The notes under the pieces are model-generated. The model did not search any database and had not been told where the DNA came from. It worked only from the letters and a program-made list of their open reading frames with translations. DNA of 64,000 bases from Desulfurobacterium pacificum. Its GTDB lineage: Bacteria; Aquificota; Aquificia; Desulfurobacteriales; Desulfurobacteriaceae. The stretch spans positions 557,954 to 621,953 of the forward strand of contig NZ_FXUB01000001.1 of NCBI RefSeq assembly GCF_900182835.1, in the 5' to 3' direction. The position numbers were made by a program, and so were the translations under genes. This document shows positions 28,676 through 56,686 of the stretch, piece by piece (within the stretch, counting starts at the first letter, position 1; each line of letters begins with the position of its first letter).

Positions 28676-28736
28676 ATTATATCAGCCACAAACGGTAAAA
28701 TTTAAAAGAAAAAGCAAAATGTCATCAGGAGAAATT

Positions 28737-37415: not shown

Positions 37416-37601
37416 TTGAAAGAGAAGAAAATAAAATGCCCCAACTGCGGTAGAGAAACGGAATGGAAAGGTAATCCGTTTCGCCCTTTCTGTTCTGAAA
37501 AGTGTAAGTTAGCAGACTTGAACAAATGGTTTAACGAAGAATACGCCATAGAAGGTGCTGTAGGAAATGAAGAATCAGAAGAAGTTGACACCGGCTCTTA
37601 A
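37416..37601 (+). CDS. yacG: DNA gyrase inhibitor YacG (zinc ribbon).
   Basis: CPNCGRE...FCSEKCKLADLNKW pattern. Confidence 0.7.
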   Translation: MKEKKIKCPNCGRETEWKGNPFRPFCSEKCKLADLNKWFNEEYAIEGAVGNEESEEVDTGS

Positions 37602-40110
37602 ACAGTATCTTGACCTGAAAGAGAAGTTCAAAGATGCAATCTTAATGTTCAGAATGGGTGACTTCTACGAAATGTTCTTTGAAGACGCAAAAGTAGCAGC
37701 AAAGGAACTGGAAATTGCCCTGACTTCAAGACCTTTTGGAAAGAATAGTGCCAAAGTCCCCATGTGCGGCGTTCCCTATCACGCTGTGGAAAACTACATA
37801 ACCAAACTGGTGAAAAAGGGCTACAAAGTTGCCATATGCGAGCAGTTAGAAGAACCAAAGCCTGGTAAAAAGGTCGTTGACAGAGACGTAGTCAGAGTTA
37901 TCACGCCCGGCACTTACTTTGAAGATGAAACGGAAGACAGATTCTTAATGGCAATATATCCGTTCAAAGGCAACTACTGCGTGGCGTGGTGCGAATTGGG
38001 AACAGGTGATTACCTTTTTACAACAGTTAATAAAAAGGAACTTCTGTCAATACTATCAAAGTTTAAGCCACGAGAAATCATCATTCCCAACACTTCTTCA
38101 ATTCATTCGCTAATAAAAGAAGCTCTTCCTCATGCCTCTATCGTTGAAAGAGAACCTTGCCTTTTTTCAGAAAAGGAAACAGTAATAGATGCAGAAAACA
38201 AAGGTGAAGTAAAAGCTATTTCTGCTCTCTCAGAGTTCGTTAAAGAAACCCAGAAAGAGTTTATACCCAAACTTAAAACTCCCCGTAAATACACAGGCAA
38301 CAGATACGTTTATATTGACCCTCAAACGCAGAAAAACCTTGAGCTTATAGAACCTGCTTTCGGCGACAACGACAAAGCATCTCTATTCGGCGTTTTAAAC
38401 AGAACAAAAACAGGAATGGGCAGAAGACTCTTAAAGTTCTGGATATTACATCCTTTAAGGGACATAAAAGAAATACAAAAACGCCTGAATGCTGTAGAGG
38501 AATTAACTAAAAACTACGAAACTTTAGAAAAACTTTCTTCAACGCTATCCCGAATATACGACCTGGAAAGATTACTATCCAAGATTACGTCTGGCATAGC
38601 CAACCCAAGAGAAATTGCCGCCTTAAGAAACTCTTTAAGTATACTTCCACAGCTCTTTCAGGAAATGTCCCAACTATCATCAACGCTATTTTCAGAAATA
38701 AAGAACGACTTTGACGACCTCTACGATATCTACTGCGAAATAGAAAGGGTTTTAGTAGAAAATCCCCCCACCTCTCCCAAAGAAGGCGGACTGATTAAAG
38801 AAGGCGTCAACGAAGAGTTAGATGAATTGAGAAAACTGAAAAGTCAGGCAGAATCAATCATAAGAGAGATAGAAGAAAGAGAAAGACAGAGAACAGGCAT
38901 ATCAAGCCTAAAAGTAGGCTACAACAACGTTTTCGGATACTACATAGAAGTTTCCAGACCAAACCTTCACCTGATTCCTGAAGATTACATAAGAAAACAA
39001 ACACTGGTCAATGCAGAAAGGTTTATAACGCCAGAACTAAAAGAGTTTGAAGAGAAAATCCTCTCCGCCCAGGAAAGAATAGAAAAGATAGAGTATGAAC
39101 TCTTCTCCAACCTACGCCAATTCATAACAGACAACGCCCACAGAATAATGAAAACGGCAGAGAAAGTCGCCCTCATAGATGTCCTTCAATCCTTAGCCGC
39201 CGTTGCAGTTGAAAGAGACTACACAAAACCTGAAGTAAAAGAAAGCTTCTCAATCTACATAGAAGAAGGTAAACACCCGGTTCTTGAAAAGTTCTTGGAA
39301 GAAGATTTCATTCCAAATACCACCGCCCTCACCCCCGAAAGTTACATCCTCATCGTTACAGGACCGAACATGGGCGGAAAATCGGTATTCCTGCGTCAGA
39401 CAGCCCTCATAACACTAATGGCACAAATAGGCTCTTTTGTGCCAGCCCAAAAGGCAAAAATAGGCATCGTTGACAGGATATTTTCCCGTATTGGCGCTGC
39501 AGACAACCTAAGCAAGGGGCTTTCAACCTTTATGATGGAAATGGTAGAAACTGCCAACATCCTGAAAAACGCCACAGAAAACAGCCTCATAATACTTGAT
39601 GAAATCGGAAGGGGAACGAGCACCTACGACGGCATGAGCATCGCAAGAGCTGTGGTGGAATACATCTCAGAAAAACTTTCTGCAAAAACTCTCTTTGCAA
39701 CCCACTACCATGAACTTACAGAACTTGAAGGAACGGTGAAAGGCATCAAAAACTTTCACGTTTCCGTAGAAGAAATAAACGGCAGAATAGTATTCACCCA
39801 TAAAGTTTTGCCCGGAGCGTCGGAAAAGTCCTACGGCGTCCACGTTGCAGAGTTAGCAGGACTTCCAAAGGAAGTAATAAAGAGAGCCAAAGAAATCCTC
39901 AGCAGCCTTGAAGAGAAAACCGACTACCTCCCCCTGTTTCAAAATATCCCCACCTACAGCGAAACTACAGAGTTTGAAAACGAAATGGTAGAAAGGCTTT
40001 TAGAAGAGTTAGAATCCATTGAAATTTCCACCACAACACCCCTTGAAGCGCTCATGATACTGTCAAAGTTGAAAGAAATCGCTAAAACGGTGAAAAGAGG
40101 TGGACGTTGA
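37567..40110 (+). CDS. mutS: DNA mismatch repair protein MutS.
   Basis: TPALKQYLDLK N-terminus, Walker A GPNMGGKS and the HTH C-terminus. The annotated ATG overlaps yacG by 35 nt, and an in-frame TTG at about 37585 is an alternative start. Confidence 0.9.
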   Translation: MKNQKKLTPALKQYLDLKEKFKDAILMFRMGDFYEMFFEDAKVAAKELEIALTSRPFGKNSAKVPMCGVPYHAVENYITKLVKKGYKVAICEQLEEPKPGKKVVDRDVVRVITPGTYFEDETEDRFLMAIYPFKGNYCVAWCELGTGDYLFTTVNKKELLSILSKFKPREIIIPNTSSIHSLIKEALPHASIVEREPCLFSEKETVIDAENKGEVKAISALSEFVKETQKEFIPKLKTPRKYTGNRYVYIDPQTQKNLELIEPAFGDNDKASLFGVLNRTKTGMGRRLLKFWILHPLRDIKEIQKRLNAVEELTKNYETLEKLSSTLSRIYDLERLLSKITSGIANPREIAALRNSLSILPQLFQEMSQLSSTLFSEIKNDFDDLYDIYCEIERVLVENPPTSPKEGGLIKEGVNEELDELRKLKSQAESIIREIEERERQRTGISSLKVGYNNVFGYYIEVSRPNLHLIPEDYIRKQTLVNAERFITPELKEFEEKILSAQERIEKIEYELFSNLRQFITDNAHRIMKTAEKVALIDVLQSLAAVAVERDYTKPEVKESFSIYIEEGKHPVLEKFLEEDFIPNTTALTPESYILIVTGPNMGGKSVFLRQTALITLMAQIGSFVPAQKAKIGIVDRIFSRIGAADNLSKGLSTFMMEMVETANILKNATENSLIILDEIGRGTSTYDGMSIARAVVEYISEKLSAKTLFATHYHELTELEGTVKGIKNFHVSVEEINGRIVFTHKVLPGASEKSYGVHVAELAGLPKEVIKRAKEILSSLEEKTDYLPLFQNIPTYSETTEFENEMVERLLEELESIEISTTTPLEALMILSKLKEIAKTVKRGGR

Positions 40111-41054
40111 TTTTGGTAACGGGCGGAGCAGGCTTCATAGGTTCACACCTCGTTGAAGAGATAGTAAAAAAGGAAAAAGTCGTTGTAGTGGATAACCTTT
40201 CAAGCGGAAAATTAGAGAACCTGCCAGAACACGAAAACCTTATTTTCCTGAAAGAAGACATATCGGATAAAAGCACAGTCAAGAATATCTTTGATAGCTA
40301 CCCTGTAAAAACCGTATATCATCTGGCAGCTGTTGCTTCCGTTCAAAGGTCGGTAGAGGAACCGGAAGAAACCCACAGAACAAACTTTGATTCAACTCTG
40401 TTCCTTTTAGAAGAGAGCAGAAAAAACAAAGTAAGCAAGTTTATATTTGCCTCCTCTGCAGCCGTTTACGGCGACCTTCCAGAACTGCCCAAAAGAGAGG
40501 ATATGCCCGTCAAACCGCTAACCCCTTACGGCGTTGACAAATACGCTTCCGAAAGATACGTGGTTAACAGCTTCCACCTTTACAACTTAAACGGCACAGC
40601 TCTGCGTTTTTTCAACGTTTACGGCGAAAGGCAGGACCCTTCATCCCCCTATTCCGGTGTTATTTCAATATTCATAGATAGAACTATAAAGCACCTTTCA
40701 GGTGAAGAAACGAAAATAGTCATATACGGCGATGGCAAACAAACGAGGGACTTTATCTACGTAAAAGACGTTGTTAAAGCTCTTATCCTTGTTGGCAAAT
40801 CACCTGAATCTAACGGAAAGGTTTTCAACGTGGGAACGGGCAGAGAAACCTCTCTCCTGCAGCTACTCAAAGTGATAGAAGAAATTGCCGGTGACGTTCC
40901 ACCGGTAAAGTTTGCCCCTCCCCGCAGAGGTGATGTAAAACGTTCCTGCGCAGATATAAGAAGAATTAAAGAGTTGGGGTTCCAGCCTTCCTATTCTTTG
41001 AAAGAAGGATTAAGAAAACTGTTCCAATACGAGCTTCAGAACCACAAACGATAA
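40107..41054 (+). CDS. NAD-dependent sugar-nucleotide epimerase/dehydratase (SDR). It is PelX-like, i.e. a candidate UDP-GlcNAc/UDP-Glc 4-epimerase.
   Basis: VTGGAGFIGSHL Rossmann motif and the YxxxK catalytic pattern (YGVDKY). Its 3' end converges on and overlaps the pelB-like gene. Confidence 0.75.
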   Translation: MILVTGGAGFIGSHLVEEIVKKEKVVVVDNLSSGKLENLPEHENLIFLKEDISDKSTVKNIFDSYPVKTVYHLAAVASVQRSVEEPEETHRTNFDSTLFLLEESRKNKVSKFIFASSAAVYGDLPELPKREDMPVKPLTPYGVDKYASERYVVNSFHLYNLNGTALRFFNVYGERQDPSSPYSGVISIFIDRTIKHLSGEETKIVIYGDGKQTRDFIYVKDVVKALILVGKSPESNGKVFNVGTGRETSLLQLLKVIEEIAGDVPPVKFAPPRRGDVKRSCADIRRIKELGFQPSYSLKEGLRKLFQYELQNHKR

Positions 41055-44014
41055 CCTGAAGTAATTGTCCAGCCAGAAGAGTTCGTTCCTTTAAAACCGT
41101 TAAAAACGGTTCCCTCTATATGTAAGTTGTCGTCTCCGAACAATTTTCCTCCTATCCCCAAAAGAACAGAAGCGTTCATTCCATATTTTGAGCTGTAGCT
41201 TAGAGAGGAATCAAAGTAAGGTCTCCAGACTCTGACAAAGCTGTTTCTATTCTCAAAGCCAAAGTTAAGCCCCACACCTAACTGATAGAAGCTGTCAGGC
41301 AGAACGTCGGCTGGTTTGTATTCAGATATCTTATCTGCATAAGAGTTAGTATGGTCAGATTCAGCGTATTCGTTAACAGAGAAGAAAAGCCTGAAAAGGT
41401 AATCCGGGTATCCCGAACGAGCTTTATAGGAAAGCTCTGAATAAAGCTCTCTACCTCTTCCCACGTAAACGCCGTCAACAGAGTAATACCTATCAAGGTA
41501 AAAAGAACTGAAAAATCCGTATTTGTTGGTAATAGGAAAGGAATACTCAAAACCGCCGCCGGACTTAAGAGTTGAAAAAGAAGCAATCTCTGAAACATCG
41601 CTCAAAGCGTTCACATAAAGTTTAACTGTTAACTGACTTCCCCTGTAAAAACTCCTGCTACCTTTCAGATAAAATCCCCTCCTCTCTCTACCCCCTGCTC
41701 TAAAGATAGTTACACCGCCAGAAAGCGAAGACTTGTGAAAATATCTCTTTAACCCCACGGCAACGTCAGCAGTTCCTTTTCTTTCTGACAGAACGTTTCC
41801 GCCGTTAAGAGAAAGCAGGTTGTTACTTTCAAAGGTGAAATAGGTATCATCTTCAAAATGCCAGCGCAGTTTAAAGTGCGGAGAAAGGTAGCTAAATCTA
41901 CCGCTCCTGTTAAACGTCAGGTCAGCAGAAAAAACAGAAGCGTAGTTGACAATCAGGTCTCTGAATTGACAGTAAAGCCTGTTATCTTCCCTGTTCTCTT
42001 CAAGACCCTTGTAAGCAACTACAAACGCTTTTCCGAACTTTTCTATCTCCTCAAGGGCTGCAACTCTGTCTCTTACTGGCAATATCTCTAAATACTTTGA
42101 CAATAACCTTTCCATCATATACCTGTCATCTTTGTAAAGAGCAAGAGAAAGTCTCATCCAGGGTTTCAGCTTAAAACTCTTCCTTTTCTGCAGATACTCA
42201 ACTTCTTCGTTCCTTCCGCGGTAAAGCAGGTAAGACAGGTAAATCTCTCTGGCAAAATCAGAATCCAGATAGCGTTTCAAACGAACATAATCTCTTTCAA
42301 ACTTTTCCGGTTGCTCAAAGTAGATAGCCGTGCGTAGATAAGCTTCAACGATATCCCTTCCTCTCTTTCCATTTTCAACTTCTCTCTCTGCCTTTTTAAA
42401 TATCTTAAACCTTAACTTTTTAGCTTCTCCTTCTCTGCCGTAAAGCTCTAAAACGTCCGCTTTTGTAAGCAGAAACGAAAGGCTTCTATCTTTCACAAAA
42501 TTAATGCACCGTAAAGCGTCTTTTCCGTCCTGCAAGAACAGGTATGCAGAAAGGAAATCCTCAGGTATCAGCTTTTCGTAACTTCGGTATTTTTCTAAAA
42601 CAGACTTTAAACCTTTAACGTCCTCTGCTGTAATGAGAAGGGATATGAGCTGGGATATCAGGTCGGGGGATGGGTGGGGGGATTTTTTTATGGCTGAGCG
42701 TATAAGCTTTTCTGCCCTATCAACTTCACCAATTTTTAGAAGAGCGTAAGTATAGATAGAAAAAATATCCGCATTGCTTAACAACTTTTCCCTCTGATTT
42801 TCAGGAAATCTATTGAGAAAATAAACAATATCTTTCCACCTTTTGTGTGAAGAGAGAAAAAACAGATAATAAATGAGAAAACTATCCTTTTTAAACCTTT
42901 TATAACCATCCAAAGCATACTTTGCTGCTAATTCTGGCTTTCTATAGTAAAAATACAGAACAACACGTTCATAATCATCAACACTTCCTTTCCCTTCCAA
43001 AATCAATCTCTCAGAAACTTTTACCGCAGTATCAAAATCACCAAGCGCCCAAGCAAGATTACTCAAGGTTCTCAAATAAGAAGCATCTTTCACCTTTTGC
43101 CATTCTTCCTTTAGAGAATCCAAAGATTTCCCAAACTGCCGCTTCGCAAAATAAATATGAGCAAGAAACAACCTATCTCTCGGATTTAATCCATACTTTT
43201 TTCTTAAAATCTTAAAAACCTCTAACGCCTTCTCCGTCTGTCCTCTATACCAATATATATTCGCTGCCACTCTTAAAGCTTCAGGATTATTACCATATTT
43301 TCTTACCAAGATTTCAGCAGCCTTGTCTGGCTGCCCAGCCACGTTAAACACGTTTATAACTTCTTTGAAACCTACGTTTATCCCCCTTTTAAGCATCAAA
43401 TTTAATGTTTTCATTGCTAAATCAGGTCTATTAAGCGCAAGAGACATTGAATAAAGTTCTCTCAAGTACTCCCACTTATGAAAACCAAAAACTAATTTTT
43501 CAAGTGCTTTTAGAGCAATTTCAGGCTTTCCACTCCAGGTAGCAACTGTTTTTAATCTCTCCCACCACAAATCAGAATTTGGAAACTTCTTTATTCCCAA
43601 AAGAGCTACAGTTAAAGCCTTATCTAACTTTCTATTCCCAAGATAAACGGTATAAAGAACATCCAACACACCGTTACCATGAATAACATTTTTCCTTTTT
43701 TTCTTTATTTTAGATACATCAGTAGGAACAAAAGAGTAGCTCTTAATACCTAAAGCCTTTAAAATACCTATCTTTCTCCTCAATTCCCTGACAGTAGAAG
43801 CAGTTAGAAACCTTACAGTATAGTATCCTTTATCAGTTTTATAAATAAACGCATCTCTCCTTATCTCCTGTGGAAGTTTTCTCAAAAACCCTTCTGCATA
43901 CTTATACGATGGAAACGTCGCTAACTGTATAGAGTAAGTCCCCGCAAAGACCACCTTCGGAAACAAAAGGAAAATCAACAAAACAATCCCCACTCCCCAC
44001 CAGTTACTTCTCAT
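41036..44014 (-). CDS. pelB: PelB-like outer-membrane export protein: signal peptide, SPOR-like domain, a long TPR region and a C-terminal beta-barrel porin.
   Basis: Signal peptide MRSNWWGVGIVLLIFLLFPKVVFA and a SPOR-like stretch (YSIQLATF...YYTVRF). The central region holds many helical TPR-like repeats. The C-terminal ~300 aa shows an alternating beta-strand pattern and ends in ...GYRLWF, a terminal Phe. It lies within a pel gene cluster. Confidence 0.7.
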   Translation of the reverse strand: MRSNWWGVGIVLLIFLLFPKVVFAGTYSIQLATFPSYKYAEGFLRKLPQEIRRDAFIYKTDKGYYTVRFLTASTVRELRRKIGILKALGIKSYSFVPTDVSKIKKKRKNVIHGNGVLDVLYTVYLGNRKLDKALTVALLGIKKFPNSDLWWERLKTVATWSGKPEIALKALEKLVFGFHKWEYLRELYSMSLALNRPDLAMKTLNLMLKRGINVGFKEVINVFNVAGQPDKAAEILVRKYGNNPEALRVAANIYWYRGQTEKALEVFKILRKKYGLNPRDRLFLAHIYFAKRQFGKSLDSLKEEWQKVKDASYLRTLSNLAWALGDFDTAVKVSERLILEGKGSVDDYERVVLYFYYRKPELAAKYALDGYKRFKKDSFLIYYLFFLSSHKRWKDIVYFLNRFPENQREKLLSNADIFSIYTYALLKIGEVDRAEKLIRSAIKKSPHPSPDLISQLISLLITAEDVKGLKSVLEKYRSYEKLIPEDFLSAYLFLQDGKDALRCINFVKDRSLSFLLTKADVLELYGREGEAKKLRFKIFKKAEREVENGKRGRDIVEAYLRTAIYFEQPEKFERDYVRLKRYLDSDFAREIYLSYLLYRGRNEEVEYLQKRKSFKLKPWMRLSLALYKDDRYMMERLLSKYLEILPVRDRVAALEEIEKFGKAFVVAYKGLEENREDNRLYCQFRDLIVNYASVFSADLTFNRSGRFSYLSPHFKLRWHFEDDTYFTFESNNLLSLNGGNVLSERKGTADVAVGLKRYFHKSSLSGGVTIFRAGGRERRGFYLKGSRSFYRGSQLTVKLYVNALSDVSEIASFSTLKSGGGFEYSFPITNKYGFFSSFYLDRYYSVDGVYVGRGRELYSELSYKARSGYPDYLFRLFFSVNEYAESDHTNSYADKISEYKPADVLPDSFYQLGVGLNFGFENRNSFVRVWRPYFDSSLSYSSKYGMNASVLLGIGGKLFGDDNLHIEGTVFNGFKGTNSSGWTITSGYRLWF

Positions 44015-45085
44015 TTAATTTCCTCCAGAAACCCTCTTCAAAAGCATATCAGCAATTCTCAAAGATAGCTTCCTATCGTTAATAGCTCTTGCCACACCTA
44101 AAAAGTAGTTAAGTACGCTGTCATTGTTAGAATATTTATCTAAATTCTCTTCAATAAGCTGAGAGACACTACCATAATCCCTTTTCCATAAAGCTAAGTT
44201 TATACACGTCTTAAGAACATTAAAGGATGGATTCTTTTTCAAGTAAACCTTACAAAATTCTAAAGCTCTATCGTAATCTTTATAAGAAAGCTCAAAATTC
44301 ACCAAAGTTCTAAAATCTTTGAAAGAGAACTCACCTCTATGAAGCAGGTTATAGGCTAATTGTTCAACTGTTCCCTTCTGTTTCAGATATAAAGCTGTTT
44401 TGAATAACTCTTTATCAAAATCTTTCCCAATCTCTCCTTTCCTCATCAAAATCTTTAACGTATCAGCAATCAGCTTTTTATCTCCAGAAGATATAGCAAG
44501 AACCATCAATTGCTTATAGTAATTTTCATCTCCCGTTAATTTCGCAAGTTTTTCACAACTCTTATAAGCCAAGTCCTTAAAGCCAAAGGCAAGAGCTTCC
44601 TCATAAACAAATCTATACGTTTCAATAGAAGGAAACGTCCTCTCATAAGACTCAAGAAACTTACGTATCTCTTTCCTTATTTTCTCTCTTTCCTTATTAT
44701 CCTTTTGGGCAAAATACTCCGATACAAGAATCTTAAAATCTAACTGATAAAGGAATTTTTTCTGCTTTTTATCCCTAATTTTTTCCAAATACTTTTCTAT
44801 AAGTCTATGAGCTTCTTCATACCTTCCTAACTTAACATCCTTCTCTATCAAAAGAGAAAACAACTTAGAATCAAACTTAATATCCAAAAGTTTTTCTAAA
44901 TATAATCTGGAAAGATCAAGGTTATAGTCTTCTTGAGTAAGCAGAATTTCATTCAATCTACCTTTCGGAAACATTACAAAAGCCAGAATCAAAAATAATC
45001 CAACAAAAGCTAACACTTCCCATTTAGAGAATATTTCAACGTTTACAAACTGCTTCCACTGTAACCTTTTTCTTTCTTGCTTCAA
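44015..45085 (-). CDS. Inner-membrane-anchored TPR protein. It is either a split-off N-terminal part of PelB or an accessory TPR protein.
   Basis: One N-terminal TM helix (VLAFVGLFLILAFVMF) followed by TPR-like helical repeats. Its stop directly abuts the start of the pelB-like gene. Confidence 0.55.
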   Translation of the reverse strand: MKQERKRLQWKQFVNVEIFSKWEVLAFVGLFLILAFVMFPKGRLNEILLTQEDYNLDLSRLYLEKLLDIKFDSKLFSLLIEKDVKLGRYEEAHRLIEKYLEKIRDKKQKKFLYQLDFKILVSEYFAQKDNKEREKIRKEIRKFLESYERTFPSIETYRFVYEEALAFGFKDLAYKSCEKLAKLTGDENYYKQLMVLAISSGDKKLIADTLKILMRKGEIGKDFDKELFKTALYLKQKGTVEQLAYNLLHRGEFSFKDFRTLVNFELSYKDYDRALEFCKVYLKKNPSFNVLKTCINLALWKRDYGSVSQLIEENLDKYSNNDSVLNYFLGVARAINDRKLSLRIADMLLKRVSGGN

Positions 45086-47801
45086 CCTCTACCATTCCTC
45101 CTTTCCTTTTCAAATTAACTCCATTACCCACTCTAAGAGAACAGGTATCAGCTACCCGCAAATCTGCCTTCAAAGGTAAAACTTCTGAATGCAGAACTAA
45201 ACGGTAATATCCTCTTTCTACATCTTTCCTAAAATCCTTTACCATACCGTTTGAACTCACCAGAACAAAATCGTTATCATCTCTATTAACAAAAACGATT
45301 CTCCTACATCTACTATCATCTAAAAATACGTAAATCCTGCCGTTTATCCTTCTATAACCAACAACTCCTTGAGATTTATCAATACTTGGTATCCCGCCCT
45401 TCCCCTCCAATCTAACTGTCTTCAAACTACCCGAAGAACAAAAGTACATATTTCCATCCCTATTACTTTCAGCAATACTTGCTCCCCTGAATTCCAAAAC
45501 CCGCTGGGCATATTCAGAGAGAAACATAGGAACAGTTCCTTGTCTCATAGCCCAATCGTAAACTTTCTTTAAAGCGTTGAAAGACAAAGGAAATTGAGCA
45601 GAGTAAAAATGGTAATAGATACTTATAGGCTTTAATCTTCTCGGCTTATCCGTAAGTTTAAACGTTGAAATAACTCTAACGTACCCATCTTTGATTTTCC
45701 AACCTTTCGTATAAACTTCCTCATTTTGAACAGGAGCATAAACTTGAAAAAATTTTCCCTTATTGATACCCATAGGAGAAACTTTACAAAGGTAAGGAAA
45801 AGTATCATCTATAGTTGTATCCCCTCCGTTAACGTTATAAACACCCAACTTATACGTTCTTTCAACAACCGGTGGCGGTGGGGCACAATCACCAGACCAC
45901 AACAACACTTTCGCCTTTTTACCATTAGGAGCAAGATATTTATCTATAAACTCGAGAGAATAATCAATTTCTTTCTTTACACTTGGAACATAACCGGGGA
46001 TAGGAAGATGATAACCATACTTAAGATTTCTCTTATCGGTAGGTTTCAAACCCATACTCATTCTGTAAACATCTATCCAGTTAAAAGGATGAGAATAAGT
46101 ATGACTCGCAGGCTCAACGTTAGGAAGCGAAAAAATACTTTTAGCAACTTCCATCAATTTCTTTGCCTTTTTAGGATAAAGCCCTCGTGGGTCAACTTCT
46201 CCAACTATTACAGAAACAGTATGCGGAACTTTATAAACCTTAAAAATCTTTTCTCTTAAAACTTCACCTACATATTTTCCATATTCCACAAAACTTTTAT
46301 CTGCAAACCCATCTCCATCTAAGTGAACAGTCATTATTCTCCGCCCACTCTCAGTCGTGACGTCAGGCGCAAAAGGCAATCGTCCAAAAACTTCCGAAAA
46401 CAGCCAAAACGGGTCAAAAACCCACAAACTATCGTTAAACATATCTTTAAGCAAGTAACCTGAATAACCGTAGCCGCCCCACGGAGTTATCGCAACAGGA
46501 ATGAACTTTTGACCTACAGAATTCTCTAAAACAAGCAAAGGAGTATATTTCCCTTTAGGATTTACAAAACTATCCGTAGGAAACGGATAGGCTTTAATCT
46601 CAAAACCATAAGTTCTTCCTTTATAAACAATCTTAGGAACTTCTTCGGGCTTTCTGTTGGAAACCAATTCAAAATTTAAGTGTTTTAACTGCTCAGGCGA
46701 AAAAACGCTTAAATCAACAATAAAAACCTTTATTCCTCTTTTCTTAGCTTTTAAAAGTAACTTTATTACTTTATCTTTATTTTTTTTCCCTCGTATATTC
46801 CATACAACAACGCCTTTTACATCGGAAGTTAAACTTTTTTCAGAAAAATCCCCCACACTCACCACCACCGGTTCATATCCCAACCATTCAAGCGGTAATT
46901 GAATTAACCTATGAACATCACTCTCATCAGGAATCTCTAAAGATGAGTCATAAACCAAAAGAATTTTCCTCTTCAAAATATGGAAAACTCCTTCTCCTAC
47001 CTCTGTCAAATTTTTATCAGCAACCCAAGGTATAAACCCCTCTTTTATTAACCTCTTAGCAACTCTCCTCGCCTCCTGTTCTTTATTAGACGGCAGATAG
47101 TCAATCACCACTACAGGTTTTTCTTCTTTTATCTTTTTAAGCTTATCTAACAACCATTGTCTTTCTCTATTTCCCACATCAACGTAATTAAGCTTAGCAT
47201 CTAATCCTTTATAAAGAGATTCAACAACTACCGCATCAATCAAACTTTTGACCTGAGGATAGACATCAAATCCCCTATTAACCATAATAATCTTCTTGGG
47301 ATAATTCCTCCTCAAAGCCTTGATAAACTCAACTTTTCTTCTTTCATAGCTTTTCCATTCCTTCTTAGGAAGAACCATTTGATAAGAATCAAGCGTATCC
47401 AAAAAAATCCCATCGTAACTCTTAAGCAAAGCACTTGCTTTCTTCAACATAAACTCAAAACATTCTTTATTTCTTAGATCAACAACAAAAGATTTCCACG
47501 CTTTATTCTTACCTAAAATCCAGCTTTTCCTAACGTGCTTAAAAAACTTTCTAAAAGGTTCTACCTCGCCCAAGCTAAAGTAAGCTATAAGCTTTCCCCT
47601 CCTTTTAACGTAAAACCTCTCTTTTATCTTTTCTGGAGTAAAAACATCAGGGTCAACAACTATCCAATCGTATGTATACAAAACTTGGTCTGGAGGCTCA
47701 GAATACATAAAAGCAACAGATGGCTTAACGCTTTGCGCAAAAACTTGAAATCCCCACAAAAAACTAAGTGTTAAGCATAAAAGTCCTATAATGAATCTCA
47801 T
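45036..47801 (-). CDS. pelA: PelA-like periplasmic bifunctional protein: an N-terminal GH114/GH166-type glycoside hydrolase and a C-terminal CE4 polysaccharide deacetylase.
   Basis: Signal peptide and a GH114-like TIM-barrel region (IAYFSLGEVE...GIFLDTLDSY...IMVNRGFD). A CE4-like HTYSHP motif and an upstream DGDG sequence are present. At 921 aa it is similar in length to P. aeruginosa PelA (948 aa). Confidence 0.7.
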   Translation of the reverse strand: MRFIIGLLCLTLSFLWGFQVFAQSVKPSVAFMYSEPPDQVLYTYDWIVVDPDVFTPEKIKERFYVKRRGKLIAYFSLGEVEPFRKFFKHVRKSWILGKNKAWKSFVVDLRNKECFEFMLKKASALLKSYDGIFLDTLDSYQMVLPKKEWKSYERRKVEFIKALRRNYPKKIIMVNRGFDVYPQVKSLIDAVVVESLYKGLDAKLNYVDVGNRERQWLLDKLKKIKEEKPVVVIDYLPSNKEQEARRVAKRLIKEGFIPWVADKNLTEVGEGVFHILKRKILLVYDSSLEIPDESDVHRLIQLPLEWLGYEPVVVSVGDFSEKSLTSDVKGVVVWNIRGKKNKDKVIKLLLKAKKRGIKVFIVDLSVFSPEQLKHLNFELVSNRKPEEVPKIVYKGRTYGFEIKAYPFPTDSFVNPKGKYTPLLVLENSVGQKFIPVAITPWGGYGYSGYLLKDMFNDSLWVFDPFWLFSEVFGRLPFAPDVTTESGRRIMTVHLDGDGFADKSFVEYGKYVGEVLREKIFKVYKVPHTVSVIVGEVDPRGLYPKKAKKLMEVAKSIFSLPNVEPASHTYSHPFNWIDVYRMSMGLKPTDKRNLKYGYHLPIPGYVPSVKKEIDYSLEFIDKYLAPNGKKAKVLLWSGDCAPPPPVVERTYKLGVYNVNGGDTTIDDTFPYLCKVSPMGINKGKFFQVYAPVQNEEVYTKGWKIKDGYVRVISTFKLTDKPRRLKPISIYYHFYSAQFPLSFNALKKVYDWAMRQGTVPMFLSEYAQRVLEFRGASIAESNRDGNMYFCSSGSLKTVRLEGKGGIPSIDKSQGVVGYRRINGRIYVFLDDSRCRRIVFVNRDDNDFVLVSSNGMVKDFRKDVERGYYRLVLHSEVLPLKADLRVADTCSLRVGNGVNLKRKGGMVEVEARKKKVTVEAVCKR

Positions 47802-49137
47802 AAAGAGCCCTCCTCAATAGAAGCGTAGCAAAAACAAAAGAAAAAAGCAGAGAAAACAGAAAACCGTAACCGTAAAAGTAAGGACCTCCCTTAATGCTCA
47901 GATAGGTAAAGAGAGCATTCGTAACGAAAAAAACAACAGTTGATACAACAGCTTCTCTCCGCAAGTCAAAATAAAAAAGCAGAGAAAGAACCACCATAAA
48001 GAGCAATTGCAGAGAAGTCCCTAAACACAAAATATTAAATAGAGGAATGTACAGCAGAGAAAGCTTAAACAACTTAAAAAGAGCATACTCCACCAAAAAA
48101 ACAATAACTAAAGCTATAGCCTGAATTCTAAAAACCTCTTGGATTAAAGACCTTATAGCCATAAGCATTTCATAACCTAACTCCAGGATTCTCTCTAAAG
48201 TTTCCCCTTCCCTCACAGCATCGTAGTATCTTTGATAGTATTCTGCAAATTCCCCTTCCAGTTTTAAAAAGAAAAACCCCATACCTGGCGCAATAGAAAG
48301 GTAAGCTAAAAACATCGGAACATCATAAACGATAGACGCCCTAAAAGGTCCCAGAACGTTTTCTCCCGTAGAACCTGAAAACCAAAAAAGAAACTTATCA
48401 ATCCATATTCCTAAGTTATAAAAAACACCTGCAACAGCCAAAGAGTAATAAACTCTCTTTCGGTTTAAAAAATCAAACTCAATCAATCTATCGGAAGGAA
48501 AGGATTTAAACATATAACCGACAATAAGAGAAAAAGTAATCCCCGCACCCACAAAATAAGCAATTAAAAAGCCTAACACAAAATATTTCTGCAACAAACC
48601 TGCCAGAAGAACCATAACACCAAAACCAAAAAGGAAAGAGGCAAAAACGAACTTATAACTTTTAAGTGACGTCAAAACAGTATTAGCTATCCAAAAACCA
48701 GAAAAGAGAGACATAAGAAACGCAAACAAAAGAACAAAAACTGGAGAAAGCTCCCTCACGTATAACAGCCCTACAAGTAGTCCAAAAATAAGCCCGGCAA
48801 TCATGCTAAGTGTAAGAGCTCCAATAAAATTAGGGAGAACTCTATCTATTTCCTTGCTAAAAATCCTATCCGCTACGTACCTGCTGAACAGCAGTTGCAA
48901 AGGAGAAGAAACTATTAAGCTCAAAGCCGTTACATAAGTAATAACTATCTGACATTTCCTAACAAAATCGTTGTCTCCAGAAACCTTCCCTGCAACTATA
49001 CCTGCAACTAATATCGCAACAATAGACACTATCCAAGGTCCTGCACTTAGAGAGACAGAATATGCAAAAGAAAGCAGGATTGAAGACAGCCTATTACTCT
49101 TTAATAACCTTTTTAGTTCAAACGATATCCCTGCCAT
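47764..49137 (-). CDS. pelG: PelG-like 12-TM polysaccharide transporter (MATE/MOP-like).
   Basis: The MAGISFELKRLL N-terminus resembles P. aeruginosa PelG (MAGIGFELRK...). It has about 12 hydrophobic helices and is 457 aa, against 456 aa for PelG. Confidence 0.75.
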   Translation of the reverse strand: MAGISFELKRLLKSNRLSSILLSFAYSVSLSAGPWIVSIVAILVAGIVAGKVSGDNDFVRKCQIVITYVTALSLIVSSPLQLLFSRYVADRIFSKEIDRVLPNFIGALTLSMIAGLIFGLLVGLLYVRELSPVFVLLFAFLMSLFSGFWIANTVLTSLKSYKFVFASFLFGFGVMVLLAGLLQKYFVLGFLIAYFVGAGITFSLIVGYMFKSFPSDRLIEFDFLNRKRVYYSLAVAGVFYNLGIWIDKFLFWFSGSTGENVLGPFRASIVYDVPMFLAYLSIAPGMGFFFLKLEGEFAEYYQRYYDAVREGETLERILELGYEMLMAIRSLIQEVFRIQAIALVIVFLVEYALFKLFKLSLLYIPLFNILCLGTSLQLLFMVVLSLLFYFDLRREAVVSTVVFFVTNALFTYLSIKGGPYFYGYGFLFSLLFSFVFATLLLRRALYEIHYRTFMLNT

Positions 49138-50614
49138 TTAAAAATTCCTCATACAACTTTCTGTAGCTATCAACAAACATCTCAAAGCTGTAAAACCTCT
49201 TAACTCTCTCAAATGCAACTCTACTACAGCTCTGCCATTCCCTTTCATTCTCCAAAAGCTCAAGGTATCCTTTGGCTATTTCACTCGGATTCGCAACTGG
49301 AGCAATCCTACCTGCTCTCCCTAATCTCACATCAGCCTCATTTAAACCACCATATATCAATTGCCTGCAAGAACCAACATCCGTAGCAACGCACGGAACA
49401 CCCGCTGCAAAAGACTCCAAAACTACTAAAGGCATTCCTTCACTTATAGATGTAAGGGTCGTAATCTTTACTTTTTTAAGAACCTCTGAAACACGACGAA
49501 AACCTAAAAACTTTACGTTATTCTCTAATCGCAAAACTTCTACCAACTTTTTACACTCTTCAAAATACTCCGGGTCTTCATCTGTAGGACCAACAACCCA
49601 CCCCTCAACTTTAGCGTTTTTATTAACAACAATCCTCATCGCCTTAATAAAAGTTTTAATATCTTTTATAGGCACAACCCTACCAATTAAAGCAACTACG
49701 GGCAATCTATCTCTACTTTTCCTTGCTTCCTCATACAGCTCTACTTTTACTCCATTAGGAATAACCATTGTCTTTTCTTCAGGAGCACCTAAAGAAATTT
49801 GAACTCTACGAGCATCTTCAAAGAGAGAAATGATTACAGAAGCAGTTCTGTAAGAGATTTTCCCTAAACCCACGAAGAAATTAATCCACATTCTCCTAAG
49901 ATGGTCAATCTCTCCATACTCTTTCTGATAAAAGAACCTCCTATCCTGTATCCAATCTGAATTCAGAATATCTATCTTCCTTTCTCTCGTATAAATACCA
50001 TGCTCAGTAAGGATAAAAGGTGATTTATAACTGTTTCTAATTAAAGAAGCTAAAAAACCAGCATATCCCGTAGAAGGACTATGAACCAATCTTGGTCTAT
50101 CTACTTCTTCAACTATTGAAGCTACCCTCCATAAAGGGTCATGAATATTCCTTACCGTCCAAAAATAATCAATAAAAGGCAAATCTTCAGCAAAAGTCAT
50201 ATAGCTTTCACATATAAACTCCCAAGAAGTTCTCCCATACAGAAACTCCTCCTCTTTAACCTCTTTTAAGTAAAAATCCTTTCTATGTAGGTTTTCAGGT
50301 ATATCTCCTCCACTCCTTCTGAACCAACAGTGCAAAAACCTCAATTTCTCTAAAAGTTTTTCTCTCTTTTTTAGACTTTGAGGCTCTGGTCTATCCTTTT
50401 TATCAAAAAGAAAAAACTCCTTAACAAACAAAACATTATCCGGAATATCGTACTGAATCTCTCCGTAATCCTCCCTCCTACTTCCCAAAAATACAACGCC
50501 AAAGGTAAACTCTGTTAAAGAAGTAATGAGCTGATGTATCCAAGAGGAAACTCCTCCCCTTATGTAAGGATACGTTCCTTCAGCTACCATTAAAATATCA
50601 GGATTATGTGTCAT
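49118..50614 (-). CDS. pelF: PelF-like GT4 family glycosyltransferase.
   Basis: EGTYPYIRGGVSSWIHQL N-terminal motif typical of PelF-type GT4 enzymes, plus the GT-B C-terminal EX7E region. Confidence 0.75.
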   Translation of the reverse strand: MTHNPDILMVAEGTYPYIRGGVSSWIHQLITSLTEFTFGVVFLGSRREDYGEIQYDIPDNVLFVKEFFLFDKKDRPEPQSLKKREKLLEKLRFLHCWFRRSGGDIPENLHRKDFYLKEVKEEEFLYGRTSWEFICESYMTFAEDLPFIDYFWTVRNIHDPLWRVASIVEEVDRPRLVHSPSTGYAGFLASLIRNSYKSPFILTEHGIYTRERKIDILNSDWIQDRRFFYQKEYGEIDHLRRMWINFFVGLGKISYRTASVIISLFEDARRVQISLGAPEEKTMVIPNGVKVELYEEARKSRDRLPVVALIGRVVPIKDIKTFIKAMRIVVNKNAKVEGWVVGPTDEDPEYFEECKKLVEVLRLENNVKFLGFRRVSEVLKKVKITTLTSISEGMPLVVLESFAAGVPCVATDVGSCRQLIYGGLNEADVRLGRAGRIAPVANPSEIAKGYLELLENEREWQSCSRVAFERVKRFYSFEMFVDSYRKLYEEFLNGRDIV

Positions 50615-51605
50615 TCCTCAATCTACCTTCCCACAAAAGTTTCATAAAGTAAACATTTGGATGTAAAGACAATGGAATTCCTTCCCAAAGTTTCTTAACG
50701 TTTTCATAATTCCCACGATAAAACTCAATCTCTGCAAGGTAAGGAATAACTCTTATTTTCGTTACAACATCATTACATTCCAAAGCTTTAGAGAGATATT
50801 CAAATGCCTTCTCATAATCACCTTTCCTTAAAAAAATCCTCCCCGCCACCAAATACACATCTGGGTCACCATTTAACTCCAAAACCTTTTTAACGTAAAA
50901 CAACGTTTCTTCCACAACAAAATTTTCAAGTTCCTTATCCACAAGCCCAAAATAGAGCAATTCCCAATAAAGAAGAGCTAACTTCTTATAAACTTCCAAC
51001 AGTTCCTTCTCTGCCAAACCTTCTTTTAAGCGGCTCTTTAAAAAACTTATCCTGTCATTTATCTCTTTCTCTAAATGAGAAATAATAGAAAAAGCAGTAA
51101 GTCTCACCTCATCTTTAGGATTTCCCAAAGCCCTTTTAGCTATCTCTATAGAAACAGGCGTTCTCATCTCCTTAAGTAGAAAAACAGCTCGTTCATCAAT
51201 ACGGTGAGCTTCACGTTTAAAAAACTGCAAAACTCCTTCTCCAAATTTCCTCGGTCTAACTCTAACATTATCCATAGTTATCTCTTCAACCTGAATACGC
51301 GAAACTGAAGGAGTTCTATCCCTTTTCTGCTTTCTTAAAACAAGCACATACAAAATCAAATAGGCAACATAACCAACTAACGGAAAAAGGAAAACAGAAA
51401 GAAAAATCGCTGGAAAGCTTCCTCTTGCTCTCCTATAAATAGACGTTACAAAAGGATAGATAAAAACAGAAAAAAGCAAAGATGCAATAAAATGAAAAAA
51501 CAAAAAAGCAAAAACAGCAACGTACGGGTTATCAACCCTTAGAAAACCTAAAGCCATAGATTCAAGTATAACAGAACCCACTAAAGTCTTATAGCTGCTT
51601 CCCAA
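50604..51605 (-). CDS. pelE: PelE-like inner-membrane protein (N-terminal TM helices plus a cytoplasmic TPR-like domain).
   Basis: Four predicted TM segments in the first ~100 aa, then TPR-like helical repeats. 333 aa against 329 aa for PelE. Confidence 0.6.
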   Translation of the reverse strand: MGSSYKTLVGSVILESMALGFLRVDNPYVAVFAFLFFHFIASLLFSVFIYPFVTSIYRRARGSFPAIFLSVFLFPLVGYVAYLILYVLVLRKQKRDRTPSVSRIQVEEITMDNVRVRPRKFGEGVLQFFKREAHRIDERAVFLLKEMRTPVSIEIAKRALGNPKDEVRLTAFSIISHLEKEINDRISFLKSRLKEGLAEKELLEVYKKLALLYWELLYFGLVDKELENFVVEETLFYVKKVLELNGDPDVYLVAGRIFLRKGDYEKAFEYLSKALECNDVVTKIRVIPYLAEIEFYRGNYENVKKLWEGIPLSLHPNVYFMKLLWEGRLRNDT

Positions 51606-51625
51606 ATTTCCCCCTCAAATACCTA

Positions 51626-52891
51626 TTACTCTTCAAATTGCTTAAAAAGATACTCCAACTTTTCCTCTATCTTTCTATCTATTGAAATAATTCTGTAAGG
51701 AAGTTCTACTTTCCCGAAACTGTATGAAAAATCCCTTTCTATCCTACCCACAAACCCCCTCGCAGAAGAGATAGAAGAAAGCGGAAGCATCACAAAAACT
51801 AACTTCACTCCGCCCAAATCCACGACGTTCAACATATCAAGACCTCTAATCCTCTCAGACAAAAACAAAGGAAAATCTTCTTTTAAATGGTCTACTCTAT
51901 AAATAACTAAGGAACTTTCTATTCCTGTTCTTTCTCTCAACGAAACCATAACAGACAACTCTTTTAAAAAGTCATACTCAAAATACCGCTTTAAAATAGA
52001 ACTTACACCACCAACCAAATCAACGCTTTCCAGCTCATTAAGCAACCAAAAGAGAATAACACCAAGAGAAAGAATAGTATCGCTGTTAAAATAGTTAAAT
52101 GGAATCCTTGTCAAAACAAAAACTCCCAAGAGTTTATCTCCTGAAGCAAAGTCATAGATAGGAATAACTGCAAGGTATTTAGACTGAATCTGATTTTCTA
52201 TCTGCGAGATAAAAACTGCCTCTTTCTCTTCAAGTGCCTTCTTCACCAAGGGGTCTTCTTTATCTAAGGAAATCTCTTTCCCAACAGAAAGCACACAATC
52301 AAAACCATTTCTCTGCGGCAAGAAAAGTCCAGCTTCTTGAACGTAAAATCCTGCCACCATAAGTTCTTTCAATTTTTCAAAGATTTCTTTTAACCCACCA
52401 CTCTCCCCCAATTCCTTCAATTTTTCCTTCAATTCTCCAATTATTGACCTAATACTAACAGGCTTAACCATATAATGCTTTTCCAACTGGTCGTGAGAAA
52501 GCTTCAGAAGAATAAAATCGCTCGCCTGTCTTCTTATCTTATCCTTGAAGTACAAATTCTCTTCCTCAGTTACTCTAATTTTCCTCGTCCAGAAAAAGTG
52601 GAACTCTCCAGCTATAAGAACATGCAACAGACTCCAAAGCAAAAACTCTACATTCCAGTTTCTATAAAGAACTCCCATGGCAGCAATTTCAAGGAGAAAA
52701 GCTAAAAGCCCAATCTCAAGTCCGTAATAAAGCGTAACAACCAGTAAAAACAGCAAATAAGGGTTAATAGGAGAAGACGTAAACAACGGGTCAGAAGGAT
52801 TCAAAAAATATCCAAAAATGAAGAAAAAAACGGTAAACAAAAAAACTTCTATAAGAACAAACTTAACGCCAATCTCTCTAAACATTATCAA
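51626..52891 (-). CDS. pelD: PelD-like inner-membrane c-di-GMP receptor (4 TM, then a GAF-like and a degenerate GGDEF-like domain).
   Basis: Four N-terminal TM helices, a cytoplasmic region of PelD-like length and a candidate RxxD I-site (RGLD). Supported by its operon context between pelC and pelE. Confidence 0.6.
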   Translation of the reverse strand: MIMFREIGVKFVLIEVFLFTVFFFIFGYFLNPSDPLFTSSPINPYLLFLLVVTLYYGLEIGLLAFLLEIAAMGVLYRNWNVEFLLWSLLHVLIAGEFHFFWTRKIRVTEEENLYFKDKIRRQASDFILLKLSHDQLEKHYMVKPVSIRSIIGELKEKLKELGESGGLKEIFEKLKELMVAGFYVQEAGLFLPQRNGFDCVLSVGKEISLDKEDPLVKKALEEKEAVFISQIENQIQSKYLAVIPIYDFASGDKLLGVFVLTRIPFNYFNSDTILSLGVILFWLLNELESVDLVGGVSSILKRYFEYDFLKELSVMVSLRERTGIESSLVIYRVDHLKEDFPLFLSERIRGLDMLNVVDLGGVKLVFVMLPLSSISSARGFVGRIERDFSYSFGKVELPYRIISIDRKIEEKLEYLFKQFEE

Positions 52892-53340
52892 AACGCCTTG
52901 TCAAACAATTCCTGTGTCATTAATCCCAAAGATTTATTTCCCCATTCAGTTGCAGACAGAGAACCTGAAGCCAACTTTTTCCCAGTTTTCAAGTCTTTAA
53001 CAACATATGTAACGCTCACAGCCGGCTCTCCATCTATTCCGACCTTATAACGCCATTCATTTACATATCCACTAATCACGCACCTGTAACCTTCTTTTAT
53101 TAAATCTCCTTTTTCAGCCCCATTAACTAAATCAACGTTGTAGCCCTTAGACTTTAAAACTCCATAAAGAATAGCAGCCACCCTACTACCTGCCAAAGGA
53201 GTTTCACTATAGTTAGTAAAAGGAACCACAGCACAATGAAAACCTTTAAAGTCTTGCCTTTTCGTCTGATTTATCAAAGTAGCACAGCCGCTTAAAACGA
53301 AAGAAAACGCAAATAATCCCCATAAAAGTTTTTTAATCAT
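52888..53340 (-). CDS. pelC: PelC-like outer-membrane lipoprotein.
   Basis: Lipobox LSGC after the signal peptide, about 150 aa, and first gene of the pel-like operon (ATGA overlap with pelD). Confidence 0.6.
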   Translation of the reverse strand: MIKKLLWGLFAFSFVLSGCATLINQTKRQDFKGFHCAVVPFTNYSETPLAGSRVAAILYGVLKSKGYNVDLVNGAEKGDLIKEGYRCVISGYVNEWRYKVGIDGEPAVSVTYVVKDLKTGKKLASGSLSATEWGNKSLGLMTQELFDKAF

Positions 53341-53412
53341 TATTACTCCCCCTTAACAAAGTAATAACGAATTTTAACACTTAATTTATCACAATGAATT
53401 GATATTAGTCAA

Positions 53413-54972: not shown

Positions 54973-55483
54973 CCGGCAACTCCATCTTTAGTTTTTTCAA
55001 AAATTCTCTAAAATGTTCAGAAAACGCCTTAAATTCTCTTTCTCTTTGCTTAACTTCTTCCCTGCCCAACTCTTCTACATTTATAACCACAATCTCATCA
55101 AATCCTTTCACCCCTAATCTTTTCTCAACTCTATCCTTAACGTAAATGAGGGAATCCCTCTTCAAAACTTCAGCCTTTTCAAGAACATCTCCTATAAACT
55201 TCTCAGCGTTATCTATATCCCTCTGTCTAACCCTACCGGAAAAGTAAAATGAAATAGAAATCCTTACAGGATTCTCAATAGGAAAGTTCTCTAAACCATA
55301 AGTTAACTTTTGGATATGAAACTGATAAATAGCCTCCCTCTGCGCAGCTAAAACTTCCTTATCGTTCATTATAAAAGGTTTCATATCACCGTTGATTCTT
55401 CGGTGCGAAATTCTCTTATAGTTAGCTTTACTCGGTATTTTCCCGACAAAGTAGAAAGTAAACCTCACCCTTTTCACCTTCAC
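54962..55483 (-). CDS. rusA: RusA-family Holliday junction resolvase with a C-terminal ~50-aa extension.
   Basis: PSKANYKR and RQRDIDNAEKFIGDVL match the RusA motifs PPSNNRYYR and RRRDLDNLQKAAFDAL of E. coli. The K/E-rich tail is extra. Confidence 0.7.
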   Translation of the reverse strand: MKVKRVRFTFYFVGKIPSKANYKRISHRRINGDMKPFIMNDKEVLAAQREAIYQFHIQKLTYGLENFPIENPVRISISFYFSGRVRQRDIDNAEKFIGDVLEKAEVLKRDSLIYVKDRVEKRLGVKGFDEIVVINVEELGREEVKQREREFKAFSEHFREFLKKLKMELPDEG

Positions 55484-56599: not shown

Positions 56600-56686
56600 T
56601 GGTGCGGGAGGCGGGATTTGAACCCGCACGCCCGTAAGGGCACCGCCCCCTCAAGACGGCGCGTCTGCCGATTCCGCCACTCCCGC
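56600..56686 (-). tRNA. tRNA-Leu (anticodon GAG).
   Basis: Reverse complement GCGGGAGTGGCGGAATCGGCAGACGCGCCGTCTTGAGGGGGCGG...GGTTCAAATCCCGCCTCCCGCACCA. Anticodon stem CCGTC/GGCGG with loop TTGAGGG. Confidence 0.8.

Follow-up and report, generated by a model that had tools for sequence, protein, structure and literature searches.

What do the tightly packed minus-strand genes at positions 41036-53340 of a 64-kb stretch of the Desulfurobacterium pacificum genome encode, and is their arrangement a new one? The stretch covers positions 557,954 to 621,953 of contig NZ_FXUB01000001.1 and is called the window here, at its full length. The original prediction, made from the letters of the DNA, took the genes to be a complete Pel exopolysaccharide locus of nine genes, with a permuted gene order and no described counterpart in a hyperthermophile-like background. 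We propose, with high confidence, that they form a synthase-dependent Pel exopolysaccharide biosynthesis and export operon, and that this operon falls in a clade of thermophiles that had been catalogued before, with pelA and pelB moved behind pelG and pelB split.

The map of open reading frames (ORFs) places eight minus-strand ORFs within 41036-53340, with 150, 421, 333, 498, 457, 921, 356 and 992 codons, in the order pelC-pelD-pelE-pelF-pelG-pelA-pelB(N part)-pelB(C part). This agrees with the predicted order pelCDEFG-pelA-TPR-pelB, and the edges of the locus are exactly ORF edges, the start of pelC at 53340 and the end of pelB at 41036. The strand, the coordinates, the tight packing and the motifs GGVSSW, MAGISFELK and HTYSHP are likewise all present as described. 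The number of genes had been put one too high: there are eight ORFs, the list given with the prediction itself names eight, and the only candidate for a ninth component is a PelX-like epimerase gene on the other strand. All eight ORFs are full length, with no frameshifts or internal stops. Five of the junctions are overlaps (4, 11, 20, 38 and 50 nt), one is a 20-nt gap and one is a direct abutment, where the TAA stop of the short pelB piece is followed immediately by the ATG of the 992-codon piece, whose GGAGGA ribosome-binding site (RBS) sits in the final codons of the short piece.

Profile searches on each protein recovered Pel families for PelD, PelF, PelG and PelB, and GH114 for PelA. Altogether seven of the eight proteins find support in curated profiles or in solved Pel proteins that they match, and PelE in its position and architecture. 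The claim of a complete Pel locus holds. Since the curated-model scores are 3 to 15 times their own cut-offs, chance is not an issue. For comparison with other genomes, PelF was scanned for in one genome per GTDB species, giving 80 loci (numbered with the prefix L), and the eight D. pacificum pel proteins were mapped onto them.

The polymerase and the putative exporter are recognised by curated models. PelF (498 aa, 49118..50614, minus strand as for all the pel genes) is a cytoplasmic GT4 glycosyltransferase matching the NCBIfam equivalog NF038011 over its full length at 603.9 bits against a cut-off of 100; it also matches DUF3492 (PF11997, 287 bits) and Glycos_transf_1, carries the GGVSSW motif and shows no transmembrane (TM) segments in a hydropathy scan. 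PelG (457 aa, 47764..49137), the putative Pel exporter of the inner membrane, matches PF16933 end to end at 428.6 bits (residues 1-453; the profile has 452 positions), and the hydropathy scan gives 12 hydrophobic segments behind the N-terminus MAGISFELK.

PelD (421 aa, 51626..52891) is the predicted inner-membrane receptor for cyclic di-GMP (c-di-GMP). It has four hydrophobic segments in residues 1-100, followed by a GAF domain and a degenerate GGDEF domain, and it matches PF16963 (PelD_GGDEF) at 32 bits with a cut-off of 27. The PelD entries 4etx, 4euv and 4dn0 of the Protein Data Bank (PDB) match residues 146-395, the GAF-GGDEF part, at E=4e-8. The I-site R349-G-L-D352 and the second arginine, R383, align with the RGLD and the arginine of P. 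aeruginosa PelD (PaPelD), and both are kept in most of 33 homologues; in five loci, including all three of Thermocrinis, the first arginine is replaced by lysine. PelE (333 aa, 50604..51605) is an inner-membrane protein with two strong N-terminal TM helices (about 31-49 and 71-89) and a TPR-like C-terminal region in which the TPR matches are weak. By tblastn its homologues occupy the same position in four loci that do not have the rearranged C-D-E-F-G-A-T-B order (L042, L046, L057 and L061), and the orthologue in Thermovibrio ammonificans is entered as PelE in S1 Table of a 2020 survey of pel loci (Bundalovic-Torma et al. 2020, PMC7112194).

PelA (921 aa, 45036..47801) is a periplasmic bifunctional modification enzyme with a signal peptide, a GH166 hydrolase domain, a CE21 deacetylase domain and further domains. 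Residues 27-845 match the crystal structure of P. thermotolerans PelA (9CGY, E=4.6e-130), and the hydrolase-domain structure 5tcb is matched at 3.5e-35. The DGDG and HTYSHP motifs align with DGDG and HTFSHP of 9cgy; DGDG provides the catalytic base and a metal ligand, and HTxSH the two metal-binding histidines of the deacetylase (PMC12022489). The 2025 paper on PelA makes this deacetylase the founding member of CE21 and assigns the hydrolase to GH166 (PMC12022489). The predicted GH114/GH166 hydrolase fused to a CE4 deacetylase is thus right in its first half, with the hydrolase belonging to GH166 though it matches the Pfam GH114 model (68 bits), and needs correcting in its second, where CE4 gives way to CE21.

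For PelC (150 aa, 52888..53340), an outer-membrane lipoprotein with the lipobox LSG|C that is expected to form a ring around the periplasmic neck of PelB, no Pfam or NCBIfam hits were found. A profile built from 20 homologues in related loci matches P. aeruginosa PelC in the PelBC cryo-EM structure 9H80 (chain 9h80_C, E=1.6e-34), and the same profile matches the crystal structures 5t0z, 5t10 and 5t11 at about 3e-33. The PelC proteins of D. pacificum and of its nearest relative (L001:7287-7739) are 150 aa long compared with 160-177 aa elsewhere, and both lack a mid-protein segment of ~14-15 residues (alignment columns ~107-122).

The remaining gene, pelB, is in two pieces. The short gene (356 aa, 44015..45085) encodes a basic N-terminus, one TM helix at about residues 24-42 and a periplasmic TPR-like solenoid, while the long gene (992 aa, 41036..44014) encodes a cleavable signal peptide, a SPOR domain, a TPR region, an alpha-rich neck and an outer-membrane beta-barrel porin. 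In the long piece, PF24604 (B-barrel_PelB_C) scores 97 bits against a cut-off of 31 over residues 695-990, and TPR_15 scores 114 bits over residues 278-543. A phmmer search of the single sequence against the PDB returned designed TPR proteins only, and P. aeruginosa PelB was reached through a family profile of the long piece, which matches the full-length protein (9h80_M) at E=7.2e-83 with its best-scoring stretch starting from PaPelB residue 296; the profile also matches the PelB TPR crystal fragment 5wft. For the short piece, a word-index homologue search with its alignment yielded six proteins only, and the link to PelB came from an exhaustive HMMER search of 1.84 billion representative proteins with a profile of its homologues. 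That profile matches stand-alone relatives of ~350 aa as well as the N-termini (residues ~10-370) of proteins of 1000-1290 aa, and the C-terminal PelB barrel PF24604 was present in all seven of the long proteins tested. In one unsplit PelB, residues 356-1233 align with residues 123-992 of the long piece (E=1e-74) and residues 37-371 are spanned by the short piece, which places the fission point at about residue 356-371 of the unsplit protein.

Since the profile of the short piece matches the N-termini of unsplit PelB proteins and the long piece aligns with the remainder, we conclude that the two genes are two halves of PelB. All PelB elements are present across the two polypeptides, the TM helix and the first TPRs in the short one and further TPRs and the barrel in the long one. 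The separate TM-TPR protein listed in the original prediction does have a TM helix and TPRs, but it is not an additional component; it is the N-terminal ~350 residues of PelB. The long half has acquired a cleavable signal peptide of its own, and the short half has kept the basic N-terminus and single TM helix. In the Nautiliaceae loci L018 (6831-9017) and L019 (15356-17527), a single ORF of ~725 aa after pelA matches the short PelB piece, and PelB in these two loci seems to be shortened or differently split compared with the Aquificota loci.

Is this architecture confined to D. pacificum? About 40 genomes, each standing for one species and together covering at least five phyla, have the order C-D-E-F-G-A-short-long; among the hosts are Desulfurobacteriaceae, Hydrogenothermaceae, Aquificaceae, Nautiliaceae and other Campylobacterota, Elusimicrobiota, Thermodesulfobacterium, Desulfonauticus and Desulfothermus. 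The closest loci are those of other Desulfurobacteriaceae, with 57-81% identity across the locus. The split layout is seen in L001, L006, L007, L012, L015, L021, L038 and L040, among others.

The arrangement is also in the literature. S1 Table of the 2020 survey gives PelC-D-E-F-G-A-PelB-PelB for Sulfurihydrogenibium sp. YO3AOP1 and S. azorense, and C-D-E-F-G-A, a 1-kb gap and PelB for Persephonella marina and T. ammonificans, the last belonging to the same family as D. pacificum; the split-PelB architecture of the thermophiles is drawn in Fig 5(iii) of that paper (PMC7112194). The 2025 cryo-EM paper on PelBC also refers to PelB from S. azorense and from P. marina (PMC12141448), and Aquificota is among the phyla with full-length PelA (PMC12022489). 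The architecture is therefore not new: both the order and the fission of pelB have been published for four Aquificota. The proposal that it is a previously undescribed arrangement unique to a hyperthermophile-like lineage could draw on the departure from pelABCDEFG, on the fact that we found no paper discussing the D. pacificum pel locus and on the annotation of four of the eight proteins as hypothetical or TPR proteins. Being contradicted by Fig 5(iii) and S1 Table of the survey, one of whose four Aquificota is in the same family, and by the recurrence of the arrangement in about 40 species-level genomes, it has next to no chance of being correct.

Two of the pel proteins already bear informative names in RefSeq. 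Nine proteins were looked up, and eight match D. pacificum entries in the range WP_283400106-114 exactly; the PelD ORF as delimited here was not found. PelG is named 'exopolysaccharide Pel transporter PelG' and PelA 'endo alpha-1,4 polygalactosaminidase', while the entries for PelC and the short piece of PelB read 'hypothetical' and those for PelE and the long piece 'TPR'. As for the host, a thermophile from deep-sea vents, its placement in Aquificota had been correctly foreseen (D. pacificum, Desulfurobacteriaceae, with MutS 100% identical), and only the term hyperthermophile-like was an overstatement. Growth of D. pacificum is optimal near 75 C. The tRNAs and the signal recognition particle (SRP) RNA in the window have 58-71% GC in a 40% GC background, as expected for a thermophile, and the title of the species description calls the organism thermophilic.

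Some of the 80 loci lie in metagenome bins labelled archaea, with PelF identities of 31-55%: L011 (Micrarchaeia archaeon), L039 (Archaeoglobaceae) and L074 (Odinarchaeota). L011 has a full bacterial-type Pel set including a PelB barrel and a PelC lipoprotein. Mis-binned bacterial contigs seem a likelier explanation of these loci than archaeal Pel systems.

Comparison with known systems places the D. pacificum locus closest to the operons of Sulfurihydrogenibium sp. YO3AOP1, S. azorense Az-Fu1, Persephonella marina EX-H1 and Thermovibrio ammonificans HB-1, which have the same order and likewise encode PelB as a short piece of ~350-390 aa and a long one of ~920-1000 aa. Gene sizes are similar, the junctions show the same kind of overlap and the phylum is shared (with T. 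ammonificans also the family). D. pacificum differs from this clade in that the species was absent from the 2020 survey, in the extra SPOR domain on the long PelB piece and in the epimerase gene that abuts pelB, since only some of the related loci have one. With pelABCDEFG of Pseudomonas aeruginosa the locus shares all seven functions (that of PelE putatively), the PelA residues, the RxxD and arginine of PelD, the fold family of PelC, the TPR and barrel parts of PelB, the GT4 type of PelF and the 12 TM segments of PelG. However, in D. pacificum pelA and pelB follow pelG rather than precede pelC, and PelB is in two polypeptides, cut near PaPelB residue ~290-370, with a signal peptide of its own on the distal half. 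The P. aeruginosa system is the experimentally characterised one, and D. pacificum is an anaerobic thermophile. The Gram-positive pelDEA(DA)FG loci, as in Bacillus cereus (Whitfield et al. 2020, PMC7112168), have the PelD-E-F-G core and a PelA-type deacetylase in common with D. pacificum but lack PelB and PelC for outer-membrane export, whereas D. pacificum has the full Gram-negative set. In alginate export, too, the AlgK/AlgE pair divides the periplasmic scaffold and the conduit between polypeptides, much as the split PelB does; there, however, AlgK is a TPR lipoprotein and AlgE a bare barrel, while in D. pacificum most of the TPRs stay with the barrel and it is the N-terminus, anchored in the inner membrane, that forms a protein of its own. 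T. ammonificans, for its part, has an alginate-like cluster (Alg8, Alg44, AlgG and AlgE) about 6 kb from its Pel operon (PMC7112194 S1 Table).

What polymer the operon would make is a separate question, on which the gene at its far end also bears. A PelX-like UDP-hexose/UDP-N-acetylhexosamine (HexNAc) C4-epimerase of the short-chain dehydrogenase/reductase (SDR) type (315 aa, 40107..41054, plus strand; Pfam Epimerase 219 bits) is convergent with pelB, with a 3' overlap of 19 nt. Its gene overlaps the stop of mutS (37567-40110), with which it is apparently co-transcribed. The closest PDB entries are 4zrm (annotated as UDP-glucose 4-epimerase, 8e-72), 6dnt (8e-70) and 6wjb/6wj9 (1e-68), and the protein falls below the GalE equivalog cut-off (217 vs 262 bits). 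We take 4zrm to be a T. maritima enzyme and 6dnt an archaeal UDP-GlcNAc epimerase, while 6wjb/6wj9 (and 6WJA) are presumably PelX of P. protegens. Homologues of the epimerase directly flank pel in six related loci (L044, L020, L036, L040, L015 and L005), in varying positions and orientations. Like PelX, the UDP-GlcNAc C4-epimerase encoded beside pel in Pseudomonas protegens (bioRxiv 10.1101/2020.05.26.111013), it is an SDR of the same length that adjoins a pel cluster; unlike PelX, it is encoded on the strand opposite to pel and is equally close to 4zrm. The epimerase would probably supply UDP-N-acetylgalactosamine (UDP-GalNAc).

On the strength of the PelA active sites and this adjacent epimerase, the product would be a partially de-N-acetylated alpha-1,4-GalNAc polymer. 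The principal alternative is that the apparatus is Pel-like but its product chemically different, with another hexosamine, linkage or degree of deacetylation adapted to anaerobic vents at 70-75 C. Identity to characterised proteins is only about 25-55%, PelA resembles 9cgy at modest identity and the split PelB shares 19-27% of its residues with unsplit PelBs, and the 2020 survey warns that divergent pel loci may give a non-identical polymer (Bundalovic-Torma et al., PMC7112194). The epimerase, being as close to 4zrm as to 6wjb/6wj9, could equally well supply UDP-galactose (UDP-Gal). Nevertheless, PelA keeps the metal-binding and catalytic residues of a GalNAc-specific CE21 deacetylase together with a full GH166 alpha-1,4-N-acetylgalactosaminidase domain, PelF exceeds the cut-off of an equivalog-level model sixfold, and PelC, interpreted in P. 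aeruginosa as an electronegative funnel through which a cationic polymer passes, shows good conservation. We therefore regard a chemically different product as unlikely.

A mechanism for the alpha-1,4-GalNAc product can be drawn by homology with P. aeruginosa Pel. The adjacent PelX-like epimerase would make UDP-GalNAc, which PelF would polymerise in the cytoplasm on an inner-membrane platform of PelD, PelE and PelG. Binding of c-di-GMP at the I-site of PelD (R349xxD352 and R383) would switch the platform on, and the 12-TM PelG would hand the chain to the periplasm. There the chain may be guided first by the inner-membrane-anchored N-terminal piece of PelB and then by the TPRs of the C-terminal piece, whose TPR region corresponds to PaPelB from about residue 296 on and should hold the PelA-docking repeats. 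PelA, docked on these TPRs, would partially de-N-acetylate the polymer through its CE21 domain, rendering it cationic, and could trim it through its GH166 domain. The polymer would finally leave through the PelB beta-barrel, capped on its periplasmic side by the ring of PelC lipoproteins.

Several points weigh against reading the locus as a working Pel operon. The literature search found no experimental papers on Pel in any Aquificota and apparently none on the Pel polymer of a thermophile, and we infer the expression of the operon, the production of the polymer and the continuity of a trans-periplasmic conduit made from a split PelB. A motif search of the 64-kb window found no diguanylate cyclase or phosphodiesterase motifs. 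The specificity of PelF for its sugar nucleotide cannot be read from sequence, and the match of PelD is modest at 32 bits. PelE, the weakest assignment of the eight, has no family hits in Pfam or NCBIfam; it is assigned from where it lies, from its architecture and from an identity of 24-39% to its positional counterparts. In the 72-nt gap 5' of pelC, a sigma-70-like promoter (53383..53412, minus strand) was picked up by a consensus scan, with TTGACT, an 18-nt spacer and TAAATT, including a TG, and is followed by a strong RBS: AAGGGGGAG. Since neither the promoter scan nor the terminator scan was enriched over shuffles (16 promoter-like sites were found in the region vs 28 expected), this site is a candidate only, a pattern match.

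The gene directly upstream of pelC (53413-54972, minus strand) encodes a FAD-dependent protein (PF21688) and the next (54962-55483, minus strand) a RusA-like resolvase; past these lie a TrkA-type K+ channel gene, a tRNA-Leu(GAG) (56600-56686) and two ORFs of the prepilin type (N_methyl), up to position 57527. Across the 80 related loci, pel never has the FAD-dependent, RusA-like or TrkA-type ORF as a neighbour, and the first two were rejected as a possible ninth pel gene on this ground. The RusA-like gene beside a tRNA could be a phage remnant.

Another alternative is that the cluster is a horizontally acquired passenger, silent or decaying and with no role in the biology of D. pacificum. The GC content of the pel cluster is 36.7%, compared with 40.3% for the window and 41-44% directly to the left; the flanks show no synteny with those of L001, the closest relative, and Campylobacterota of the same habitats have closely similar loci. 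The distribution in the genus is patchy, D. thermolithotrophum being in the genome list of the 2020 survey without a Pel entry in S1 Table (PMC7112194). Yet the housekeeping region on the right has a GC content just as low (37-39%), and an abundance of Lys, Ile and Phe in TPR and membrane proteins by itself brings GC down. All eight ORFs are complete, have kept their catalytic and ligand residues and meet at translationally coupled junctions, and a horizontal origin would not imply a loss of function. A decaying passenger is, in our judgement, very improbable. The RusA-like ORF and the tRNA-Leu lie nearby, and the dip in GC is real but shared by the housekeeping region; an origin as a genomic island is not claimed.

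A second gene that may bear on the polymer lies 11.5 kb from the pel locus, beside a tRNA cluster. It encodes a putative lipoprotein of 252 aa (28719-29477, plus strand) that matches the Spherulin-4/GH135 family of Pfam at 114 bits and the spherulin-4 structures 5C5G (E=3.4e-11) and 5D6T, both of which we take to be Sph3 of Aspergillus. Fungal Sph3 is a glycoside hydrolase of the galactosaminogalactan pathway and cleaves a related, GalNAc-containing polymer. The GH135-like gene is linked to pel in none of the other loci examined.

How, then, would the detached outer-membrane half of PelB be held in place? Residues ~25-96 of the long piece (43727..43942, minus strand) form a SPOR-like domain by Pfam (PF05036), AlphaFold2 (AF2) and Foldseek. 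The Pfam score is 23.4 bits against a cut-off of 21 (E=7.5e-5) for the segment alone and 17.6 bits in the whole protein, which is a narrow margin. A single-sequence AF2 model of the segment has a pLDDT of 75 and the topology beta-alpha-beta-beta-alpha-beta, and its top Foldseek matches are the SPOR domains of CwlC, RlpA, DedD and FtsN, with TM-scores of up to 0.69 and weak E-values of 2e-3 to 6e-2. A phmmer search of the segment against the PDB returned irrelevant matches only, and a word-index homologue search with it returned none. The domain was not found in the closest relative, L001, or in the other homologues of the C-terminal PelB piece compared, and it is apparently strain-specific. 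In the homologue from the Aquificaceae locus L010 (11303-11800), an AMIN domain (47 bits) stands at the position of the SPOR domain. Both SPOR and AMIN are peptidoglycan-binding domains, and their presence would suggest that a wall anchor was gained repeatedly after the fission of PelB.

Tentatively, we propose that after fission the outer-membrane half, having lost its anchor in the inner membrane, had it replaced by SPOR in D. pacificum or by AMIN in L010. The conduit would then consist of an inner-membrane-tethered TPR piece and a wall-tethered TPR-porin, maybe targeted to places with denuded glycan such as the septum. The polymer made at about 75 C would be heat-stable, cationic and composed of galactosamine (GalN) and GalNAc, and the GH135-like lipoprotein might remodel it. 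This is a possible course of events that we would not yet favour over others.

With this locus the published split-PelB clade gains D. pacificum DSM 15522, a thermophile that is in culture and has a sequenced genome, and the annotation of four proteins now called 'hypothetical' or 'TPR' is corrected. Whether a cationic GalN/GalNAc matrix polymer is made at 70-85 C, and how useful its enzymes might be, is a question already raised by the 2020 survey. For the 2025 proposal that PelB physically bridges both membranes, the split protein offers a natural experiment. What is left as new is the putative wall-binding domain on the half of PelB that belongs to the outer membrane, along with the question of how Pel works at high temperature. 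The sporadic additions of SPOR and AMIN hint at how the detached outer half may be positioned, a small new observation for specialists in exopolysaccharide export.

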